Of a stretch of 64,000 nucleotides of DNA, positions 42,967 through 44,565 are shown piece after piece. Below the pieces are notes generated by a model, which was given only the letters and a program-made list of their open reading frames with translations, did not search any database and had not been told where the DNA came from. The DNA comes from an uncultured Acidobacteriota bacterium (GTDB lineage: Bacteria > Acidobacteriota > Vicinamibacteria > Vicinamibacterales > SCN-69-37), in contig CAWFLT010000007.1 of NCBI GenBank assembly GCA_963816795.1, forward strand, positions 5,877 through 69,876, given 5' to 3'. A program made the translations under genes and the position numbers. Each line of letters begins with the position of its first letter. The first letter of the stretch is position 1.

Positions 42967-44565
42967 CTACTGCAGATTCAGATCGCACGCGCGTTCAATC
43001 GCGCCCGACGCGATCAGCGCCGCGATGGCCTCGATGTCAGGCGCCGGCGGACGGTCGACGGTGAGCGTCGGCACGATACGACGCACCTCGGCCTGGACGC
43101 GCGCGAGTGGCGCAGACGTGGTGAGCGGTGCGAGCAGGTCGAGGCCCTGACACCCGGCGAGGATCTCGACGGCGACGACCGTCGTCGCGAGCTCGATCGC
43201 TGCAGCGGCCTTGAGGGCGGCGCCCATGCTCATGCTCACGTGATCCTCGCGGCCGGCCGAGGTCGGGATCGTGTCCGCCGCCGCCGAGTGGGTCAGCGTC
43301 TTGATCTCAGCGGTCAGGGCGGCGGCCGTCACTTGCGCCATCATCAGGCCGGAGTTGATGCCCGACTCCTGCACGAGGAACGGCGGCAGGCCGCTTTCGT
43401 GCGAGGTGAGCAGCCGGTCGAGCCGTCGCTCGCTGATCGTGGCCAGTTGGGCGACCCCGATCGCGAGGGTGTCGGCCGCGAGGGCGATCGGCGCGCCATG
43501 GAAGTTGCCGCCGGAGACGATGTCTCCGGCGTCAGCGAAGACCATGGGGTTGTCGGTGGCGCTGTTGGCCTCGATCTCGGCGAGCCGGCGCGCGAAGCCG
43601 ATGGCTTCGCGCGCCGATCCGTGGACCTGCGGCGCACAGCGCATCGCATAGGCGTCCTGCACGCGGCCGCAGTTTTCGTGCGACTTGTTGATCGCGCTGT
43701 GCTGTCCCAGCCGCCAGAGGTTGTCGGCGGACGCGGCCTGGCCGGGGACCGGCCGGGCCGCGTGGATTCGCGCTTCGTAGGGGTGAAAGGATCCGCGCAG
43801 CGCGTCCACCGACATCGCCGCGGCGATGTCGGCGGCGCGGGCCAGCCGCTCGGCGGCCAGCACGGCCAGCGCGAGCTGGGCGGTGCTGGCCTGCGTGCCG
43901 TTGATGAGCGCGAGCCCCTCTTTGGCGGCGAGCGTGACCGGCTGCACGCCGGCGCGCGCCAGCGCGTCGGCGGTGGGAAGAAAACGACCTCGGGGTGGGG
44001 TCAGACCGGGGTCAGACCTCTGGGTTTCGGGGTCTGACCCCGGTCTGACCCCACCCCTGACGTCGTTTTCTTCCACTTCGCCTTCACCCACCAGCACCAG
44101 CGCGAGGTGCGCGAGCGGCGCCAGATCGCCGCTCGCGCCCACGGAACCGCGCGACGGAACGCGGGGATGAATCCCCGCGTTCAGGAGCGCGATCAGCGTC
44201 TCGAGCGTCTCCAGCCGAATGCCGGAGAAACCCTTCGCCAGCACGTTGGCCCGAAGCGCGATGAGGGCGCGCACGACTGGCACCGGGAGCGGCACGCCGA
44301 CGCCGGCCGCGTGACTGCGAAGTAAATTCAATTGGAGGGCGGCGAGCCGATCGGCCGGAATCGCGACTTCGGCCAGCGCGCCGAATCCCGTGTTGACGCC
44401 ATACACCGGCGTGCCGCGCGCCGCGTGCGCGTCGACGACGGCGCGCGCGGCCCGCACACGATCGGCGGCGTCTGGTGTCAGTCCGACTGACTCACCGCGA
44501 TGCGCGATCCGATCGAGCGCATCGAGTGTGAGCGACGTCCCGTCGAGCAGCACCATAGCGGGCAA
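42967..44565 (-). CDS. hutH: Histidine ammonia-lyase, intact but carrying an in-frame palindromic insertion
   Basis: It has the MIO-forming [16 protein letters not shown] motif, [11 protein letters not shown] and [14 protein letters not shown]. An extra loop (about 25 aa) sits between GEGEVEEN and [10 protein letters not shown]. Confidence 0.9.
43977..44073. repeat. 97-bp near-perfect palindrome embedded in the hutH coding sequence
   Basis: The inner arms are a perfect 27-bp inverted repeat: GGGGTGGGGTCAGACCGGGGTCAGACC (43992-44018) and its reverse complement (44031-44057). The outer arms are GAAGAAAACGAC (43977-43988) and GTCGTTTTCTTC (44062-44073). Confidence 0.9.

Follow-up and report, generated by a model that had tools for sequence, protein, structure and literature searches.

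How does an enzyme gene come to hold a long, nearly perfect palindrome in its coding sequence and remain open? The question is raised by a 64,000-nucleotide (nt) stretch of DNA, here called the window, from an uncultured Acidobacteriota bacterium of the Vicinamibacterales (assembly GCA_963816795.1, contig CAWFLT010000007.1, positions 5,877 to 69,876). In it, a near-perfect palindrome of 97 nt (43977–44073) lies within hutH, the gene for histidine ammonia-lyase (42967–44565, minus strand). An initial annotation, made from the letters of the window, had taken it for an insertion resembling a miniature inverted-repeat transposable element (MITE) or a repetitive extragenic palindromic (REP) element. 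Comparison with related genomes supports this assignment, as the parts of the palindrome belong to dispersed repeat families. It also indicates that the palindrome is not host sequence, and that it combines two dispersed repeats, a hairpin within a hairpin. We consider it likely that the composite is selfish repeat DNA in a working gene, made of two non-autonomous hairpins dispersed in the Vicinamibacterales, the inner one (element D) nested in the outer one (element B).

Structure of the palindrome

Positions 43977–44073 read GAAGAAAACGAC-CTC-GGGGTGGGGTCAGACCGGGGTCAGACC-TCTGGGTTTCGG-GGTCTGACCCCGGTCTGACCCCACCCC-TGA-CGTCGTTTTCTTC. The inner arms, GGGGTGGGGTCAGACCGGGGTCAGACC at 43992–44018 and its partner at 44031–44057, are 27 nt each, 100% complementary and separated by the 12-nt loop TCTGGGTTTCGG. 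The outer arms, GAAGAAAACGAC (43977–43988) and GTCGTTTTCTTC (44062–44073), are 12 nt each and exact reverse complements, and a 3-nt mismatch on each side keeps them apart from the inner arms. Both the perfect 27-bp inverted repeat and the near-perfect 97-bp palindrome of the initial annotation are thus confirmed. The first three bases, GAA (43977–43979), pair with TTC at 44071–44073, which brings the palindrome to its full 97 nt; the GAA codon is missing from the hutH allele of the related locus L197, which has no palindrome. The 22-nt core of the inner arm had no match in any of 100 shuffles of the window.

When hutH is translated on the minus strand, the palindrome supplies residues 165–196 (32 letters). 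The reverse repeat unit of the inner hairpin contains TGA, so each strand has a single frame out of three that stays open across the 97 nt, and hutH reads the open one. The result is an intact open reading frame (ORF) of 532 amino acids (aa), unbroken by the palindrome, as had been noted. A strong mRNA hairpin had also been proposed, and the computed RNA fold of the region agrees with it: -101.2 kcal/mol, versus -45.2 ± 3.9 in shuffles (z = -14.4).

Two dispersed hairpin families

Element D is a hairpin of 66 nt (43992–44057) that resembles a REPIN, i.e., a REP doublet forming a hairpin. It consists of GGGGT, two copies of the 11-nt unit GGGGTCAGACC, a 12-nt loop, two copies of GGTCTGACCCC and ACCCC. 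The two forward units (GGGGTCAGACC GGGGTCAGACC, 43997–44018, plus strand) are each GG followed by the 9-bp palindrome GGTCAGACC. The loop, TCTGGGTTTCGG, occupies 44019–44030, and other copies keep it as NCTGGGNTTCGN. The two reverse units (44031–44052, minus strand) read GGTCTGACCCC GGTCTGACCCC on the plus strand and are inverted copies of GGGGTCAGACC.

We scanned for the unit with the query GGGGTCAGACCGGGGTCAGACC in one genome per species, and the locus count is therefore a lower bound. The two-unit core, which is the 22-nt arm core of D, occurs at at least 116 loci, nearly all of them in metagenome-assembled genomes (MAGs) of Vicinamibacterales or other Acidobacteriota, and several MAGs hold many loci each among the matches listed. 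The units form tandem arrays of 2–12 copies; in a subset, n forward units are followed by a spacer and the same number of reverse units, giving a hairpin. A pattern containing the window's own loop (GTCAGACCNCTGGGNTTCGNGGTCTGAC) found eight further copies of D, five in MAG25 and three in MFD04651.bin.2.167. Because these eight copies share the loop and have mutually unrelated flanks, the hairpin of two plus two units is a discrete multi-copy element. No target-site duplication was found around D, whose junctions (CTC| and |TGA) lie inside B, and the eight other copies show no consistent duplication either, so transposition of the HUH type fits D better than the DDE type. Our literature search found no paper that mentions the D unit in bacteria and none that describes these repeats in Vicinamibacteria.

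Element B is recognised once D is taken out. Without its 66 nt, the window reads GAAAACGACCTCTGACGTCGTTTTC, which agrees at 24 of 25 positions with B, a 25-nt hairpin with the layout A-tract, stem, T-tract (GAAAACGACCTC-T-GAGGTCGTTTTC). We therefore conclude that D sits exactly at the apex of B, between its position 12 and its central T. The left arm, GAAAACGACCTC (43980–43991), is identical to the left arm of the B hairpins in loci L298, L299 and L301; the central T and right arm, TGACGTCGTTTTC (44058–44070; canonical TGAGGTCGTTTTC), complete the match. The composite is thus B plus the GAA/TTC extension plus D, and the extension is not seen in other B copies.

B, defined as GAAAACGACCTCTGAGGTCGTTTTC, occurs as a single hairpin or a doublet in L298, L299, L301, L302 and L316, where it lies within a larger palindrome (family A), and free-standing in L290. 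Family A is itself dispersed (33 loci) and is the palindrome found at the hutH site of L118 and L207; small hairpins of type B and type C are nested inside several of its copies. Type C is GAAAAGACGTCGGGTGTCTTTTTC (L294 and L310). Families B, C and a third, E, all have the A-tract, GC stem-loop and T-tract of a bidirectional intrinsic terminator. As in MITEs, B (25 nt) and D (66 nt) are small, consist of inverted repeats (here fully palindromic) and encode no transposase.

The initial annotation had treated GAAGAAAACGAC and GTCGTTTTCTTC as flanks left over from the host; they are instead arms of the dispersed family B. We had at first read them as host sequence mirrored by template switching, since L197 keeps GAAAACGAC and TTCTTCC, and dropped this as the main explanation. 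A broader form of the idea is that the palindromes are made locally: a quasi-palindrome in hutH would have been perfected by template switching or hairpin-primed replication, and the likeness to sequences elsewhere would reflect convergence or gene conversion. At this site the palindrome-free L197 does already read GAAAACGAC-A-TTCTTCC, L133 and L238 contain small hairpins (GAAACCGC-TC-CGCGGTTC, for example), and the extra GAA that pairs with the host's TTC resembles outward growth of a stem. However, local events cannot yield a 24/25 match to B plus a perfect D, and they fit poorly with D carrying the same 12-nt loop at eight non-orthologous sites, with B in at least six unrelated loci and with the L118-type palindrome at 33. 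A local origin is therefore quite unlikely in our judgement; template switching may still keep the arms perfect after insertion.

A candidate transposase and intragenic arrays

The D units also flank a transposase gene. Locus L084 encodes, at 3169–3885 and between opposed unit arrays, a protein of 238 aa that has an HUH motif (MPNHYHL) and a Y motif (RYIALNPV). It matches the Pfam family Y1_Tnp with 36.3 bits (cut-off 23), and its best NCBIfam match is REP_Tyr_transpos (E = 1.6e-15), the family of REP-associated tyrosine transposases (RAYTs). In four of four loci (L084, L318, L319 and L320), forward units lie upstream of the RAYT gene and four to seven reverse units lie just past its stop; in L015, the upstream half of this layout is seen. 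It is because unit arrays bracket a conserved RAYT gene in all four loci that we call D REPIN-like. A gene of the PALP family (PF00291) adjoins the RAYT gene in every locus seen (including L084 2518–4975, L318, L319 and L320), and usually a SnoaL-like gene does too. This constant neighbourhood points to a single-copy, vertically inherited transposase gene. Homologues of the L084 protein number in the thousands, many of them labelled RayT by their sources, and most sit on short contigs (about 1 kb), which hints that assemblies break at the repeats on either side; L318, L319 and L320 are among those on longer contigs.

The loci retrieved contain 127 unit arrays, most of which have no long ORF spanning them. 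Besides the window copy, at least 6 of the 127 lie in frame within or between the Pfam domains of genes: those for an alpha-2-macroglobulin (L062 5168–5246), arginyl-tRNA synthetase (ArgRS; L094 7659–7713), the TrpC-TrpF linker (L087 735–769), a UvrD/PD-(D/E)XK protein (L103 777–844), a loop of a major facilitator superfamily (MFS) transporter (L039 3364–3442) and alanine racemase (L114 6708–6740). They are translated as repeats of the GVRPGSDRGQT type. As 11 is not a multiple of 3, adding or losing a single unit would change the reading frame.

A hypervariable loop in HutH

How much was added to hutH depends on the allele used for comparison. The alignment with the Pseudomonas putida enzyme breaks between residues 164 and 192 of the window protein, versus 162 and 165 of the reference, which leaves a surplus of about 25 residues, the 25 codons that the initial annotation had counted. 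That count does not hold against the closest palindrome-free allele, L197, which is syntenic, has 84.5% nucleotide identity and is shorter by 81 nt (27 codons). L197 reads GAA AAC GAC ATT CTT CCC where the window reads GAA GAA AAC GAC, 78 nt and then TTT CTT CCC. Its protein has EVENDILP at this point, rather than the EVEENGRFLP that had been expected from removing 75 bp.

Other relatives carry other inserts in the same place. At the hutH site of L198 there is a different 45-nt palindrome, a pair of C-type hairpins, and the insert of L199 is a pair of E hairpins, which are similar to type C. Judging by their peptides, two further homologues (P0004 and P0001) would also carry palindromes, the peptide of P0004 (EENDLGGRFTENVKRPPRSFSP) being compatible with B arms around another small palindrome. 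Expanded loops contain palindromes whose arms match at 27/27 positions in the window, 35/36 in L118, 35/38 in L207, 25/25 in L199, 16/17 in L198, 14/15 in L262 and 13/14 in L129. Except for L118 and L207, which both carry family A, these palindromes are unrelated to one another in sequence. In baseline loops, inverted repeats are no longer than in control segments (153 loci with DNA).

The site stands out across the family. Among the 120 closest homologues, the segment from GDLAPLAH to KEG varies from 24 to 69 residues around a baseline of 33–36. Insertions of at least 5 aa follow reference residue 164/165 in 53 of 121 homologues, and only one such insertion lies elsewhere; all 13 internal deletions of at least 4 aa in the 121 sequences fall at residues 164–173. 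Judged by these alignments, this beta-turn is almost the sole place in HutH that tolerates insertions and deletions. Orthologues mostly have 36 aa here, versus 61 in the window, so the 25-residue segment is not common to them. A loop shared by descent from an ancestor was considered and rejected, as the orthologues differ in its length and sequence.

The same loop is below the baseline in another set of homologues (P0076, P0106, P0070 and P0111, and loci L154 and L205), with 24–28 residues versus 33–36. These short-loop homologues lack part of the ADALARAGL helix that follows, which fits imprecise deletion of a former insert.

L118 (3498–3567) and L207 (1974–2091), which belong to different lineages and whose hutH genes are 83.8% identical, allow two family-A copies at this site to be compared (family A also occurs at L307 4065–4182). 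Their palindromes differ at two arm positions, each change having its mirror image on the other arm, and the loops are in opposite orientation (11/14 positions match when flipped, 1/14 when direct). This could reflect insertion in opposite orientations, inversion or concerted evolution of the arms. Arms that co-evolve or flip in this way are also what a local origin of the palindromes would lead one to see.

The AlphaFold model of the window protein has a mean predicted local distance difference test score (pLDDT) of 85.1 and a predicted template modelling score (pTM) of 0.89. Residues 170–189 are coil with pLDDT below 50, and in this monomer model the coil lies between strands 163–165 and 195–197, at the tip of a beta-hairpin. 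The extra residues are therefore predicted to form a disordered surface loop that leaves untouched the catalytic residues and the 4-methylideneimidazole-5-one (MIO) group. This supports the earlier suggestion of an in-frame insertion tolerated as a surface loop after the MIO region.

Could the hairpin be a feature kept by selection, such as an RNA regulating hutH-hutU (by stabilising the mRNA, as an RNase III site or as an intragenic terminator that depends on translation) or a useful peptide loop? The RNA stem is very stable, B has the layout of a bidirectional terminator, and REPs affect the expression of neighbouring genes (PMC3337134). In L279 (1913–1940), a copy of D stands right after a TGA stop, with TTCTTTTT / TTCTTTTTCC behind it, an arrangement like that of an intrinsic terminator. 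Moreover, one clade of orthologues (L129, L215, L230, L262 and L246) appears to share an older, decayed insert that is diverged and still partly palindromic. On the other side, the sequences that fill this loop in different relatives are unrelated and vary widely in length, and many relatives have none, which means that no specific RNA or peptide is needed there. Disorder is also predicted for the inserted peptide. A consensus terminator scan makes no call at the site, although its 8-nt loop limit excludes such a hairpin anyway. Rfam gives only matches to miRNA precursors and hairpins, far under the gathering scores, which we take as noise, and a known RNA family was set aside for this reason. 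We think a selected function improbable.

Finally, the palindrome might be a fold-back assembly chimera that is not present in the organism. Fold-back errors are known to produce palindromes, and none of the public runs searched holds the window sequence, the highest share of sampled words from the window being 0.22. The surplus, however, is whole codons in the sole open frame, both components are matched in many independent assemblies on contigs of up to megabases, and this hutH site holds other palindromes in assemblies made independently. Logan contigs of run X1, 95–99% identical to the window, end at 43984 and resume at 44072, and none spans the site as an empty allele; breaks at the palindrome's edges are what a real repeat or palindrome is expected to cause in a de Bruijn graph. 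An artefact is thus extremely unlikely.

The host gene and its neighbourhood

The identification of hutH comes from the ORF listing, NCBIfam and matches to solved structures in the PDB (E = 7e-128). In the profile search, the ORF is called as an equivalog by TIGR01225 (628.8 bits, cut-off 539) and scores 650.4 bits against NF006871, likewise above the cut-off. The triad that forms MIO, A144-S145-G146, is present and invariant in the alignment that includes the window protein, as are the columns Y55, H85, N222, Y306, R309 and E440. HutH with its insert is thus probably a functional enzyme, going by conserved residues. The closest HutH proteins on record are 84% identical, and the best relatives with DNA, from genome and metagenome scans, reach 71–76% at the protein level.

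Directly downstream of hutH on the same strand is hutU, for urocanate hydratase (41180–42859, minus strand), which is seen in the ORF listing; its counterparts in the syntenic loci L197 and L198 have Urocanase Pfam domains. The gene upstream, purA, is divergent from hutH, and this synteny was checked in relatives. The hutH start (TTG, 44565) and the purA start (ATG, 44586) are only about 20 nt apart, so either the promoters of the two genes reach into coding sequence or translation of hutH really begins at the ATG three codons inward. In L197, purA is split into two adjacent ORFs (4686–5971; 77 and 351 aa, both Adenylsucc_synt) by a frameshift or a sequencing error.

Two other palindromes lie in the window. 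The first (56447–56546) is a hairpin of (GGCAATGR)n, a loop and reverse units, with arms of 39 nt that are 90% complementary. It starts a few bases past the TAA of the ORF at 56072–56443, apparently between convergent genes, and like D it has tandem units in inverted blocks, although the unit is different. The second (47620–47820) is imperfect, measures about 200 nt and has its centre at GGGCGCCC (47715–47722), with motifs of the AATGG/CCATT type; it lies downstream of an ORF ending at 47499 and may be another repeat family.

Proposed mechanism

In the explanation that we favour, nested selfish hairpins in a working gene, the RAYT would mobilise D as a single-stranded hairpin in the manner of IS200/IS605 elements, without target-site duplication. 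The apex of an existing hairpin would be a favoured target, and such a preference would explain the nesting of D in B. The composite could persist as it adds whole codons (81 nt relative to the nearest palindrome-free allele), is read in the only stop-free frame and would be extruded as a disordered loop at a turn. Selection would filter insertions down to the tolerant turn of HutH, and resident hairpins would probably draw in further hairpins. These two effects are not exclusive, and together they could make the turn a recurrent landing pad, from which palindrome-stimulated deletions would strip sequence again. The very stable mRNA hairpin has a possible cost to hutH-hutU expression, going by its computed fold; as hutU is immediately downstream on the same strand, a polar effect would harm it.

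Several points weigh against this explanation. The L084 protein falls under the curated equivalog cut-off of NCBIfam (57 vs 80 bits), and the D unit, a motif of 11 nt repeated in tandem, differs from the classical REP of 20–40 nt with a GTAG/CGTC tag. The 64-kb window contains no RAYT gene, no second copy of D and no B-type hairpin beyond the one in hutH; the bracketed RAYT is known from related genomes, and the membership of D in a family within the window's own genome is taken from relatives as well. Both RAYT-driven transposition and apex targeting are read from the architecture of the loci, so they should be taken as provisional. Lastly, L197 may be a deletion footprint, with its GAAAACGAC...TTC, rather than a true pre-insertion site: B and D sum to 91 nt, the difference is only 81 nt, and L197 keeps about 10–13 nt that resemble the ends of B.

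A bolder version is conceivable, if rather doubtful. In the Vicinamibacterales, RAYT-type repeats would prefer the single-stranded apices of existing hairpins and so build nested palindromes, cycles of in-frame insertion and palindrome-stimulated deletion would make certain beta-turns of housekeeping enzymes (HutH, ArgRS and alanine racemase among them) hypervariable and disordered, and the intragenic hairpins would perhaps act as conditional switches. Such switches might work by termination or RNase III cleavage when translation is uncoupled, or by frame shifts through slippage of the 11-nt unit.

Significance

REPs and REPINs are defined as extragenic, and translated palindromes are, to our knowledge, textbook material only for Rickettsia. 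The hutH locus extends the phenomenon to an abundant and poorly studied soil phylum. It also brings a candidate mobilising enzyme (the RAYT) and a nested architecture that points to the targeting of hairpin apices. At one codon-level site, it offers a natural series of alleles that are filled, differently filled, footprint-bearing and shortened. This opens to testing what guides REPINs to their targets, for how long a gene can retain a perfect palindrome and what share of loop diversity is owed to selfish repeats. If they are real, cycles of apex targeting would let repeats drive the evolution of protein loops. On the practical side, such repeats break metagenome assemblies and inflate apparent protein diversity.

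Comparison with known systems

The closest parallel is with the Rickettsia palindromic elements (RPEs; Ogata et al. 2000, 2002), which the part of PMC10969869 that concerns them describes as in-frame coding palindromes of about 100–150 nt. As with RPEs in that account, dispersed palindromes here lie in frame in unrelated housekeeping genes, are translated at positions compatible with the fold and belong to several coexisting families. The hutH insert is likewise in frame and non-disruptive, at a surface position that is compatible with the fold (a disordered coil in the monomer model, in a loop of hypervariable length). The differences are that Rickettsia are obligate intracellular bacteria whereas Acidobacteriota are free-living soil bacteria, and that the elements here are of 25 and 66 nt, versus the 100–150 nt given there, and in the case of D are built of 11-nt tandem units. 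They are also nested and linked to a RAYT, and a single enzyme loop is struck repeatedly by different families. Given the different unit structure and phylum, homology to RPE families is not expected.

REPIN/RAYT systems resemble D in another way. Like a REPIN, D is two inverted blocks of short repeats with a spacer that form a near-perfect hairpin, and arrays of the singlet are common (PMC3116915, PMC3337134). In related genomes, the cognate repeat flanks a short, single-copy Y1/HUH transposase gene with a stable neighbourhood, as in REP/RAYT systems. However, REPs and REPINs are mainly extragenic, whereas the hutH copy of D lies within a gene and is translated. Tandem arrays of 2–12 copies of an 11-nt unit take the place of a single imperfect palindrome of 20–40 nt, and the GTAG/CGTC tag that is a hallmark of REPs (PMC3733652) was not found at the ends of the D copies. 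The transposases are also longer (about 230 aa) than expected from RAYT genes of typically about 500 bp.

Two further systems share parts of the architecture. Bacterial interspersed mosaic elements (BIMEs) of Escherichia coli are mosaic REP structures, and insertion sequence (IS) elements such as IS1397 insert into REP loops. The likeness is that small palindromic modules form composites and that hairpin loops serve as targets (D in B; B or C in A); the difference is that in hutH two tiny non-autonomous hairpins are combined within a coding sequence, and no IS element takes part. The A-tract, GC stem-loop and T-tract of families B, C and E are shared with terminator-like MITEs such as the pneumococcal SPRITE, which PMC10969869 lists. 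The window copy differs from them in lying inside a gene, where termination would be harmful. The hutH composite is thus distinct from both RPEs and REPIN/RAYT systems in its phylum, its untagged 11-nt tandem unit, its intragenic site, its nesting at a hairpin apex and the reuse of one loop by several families.

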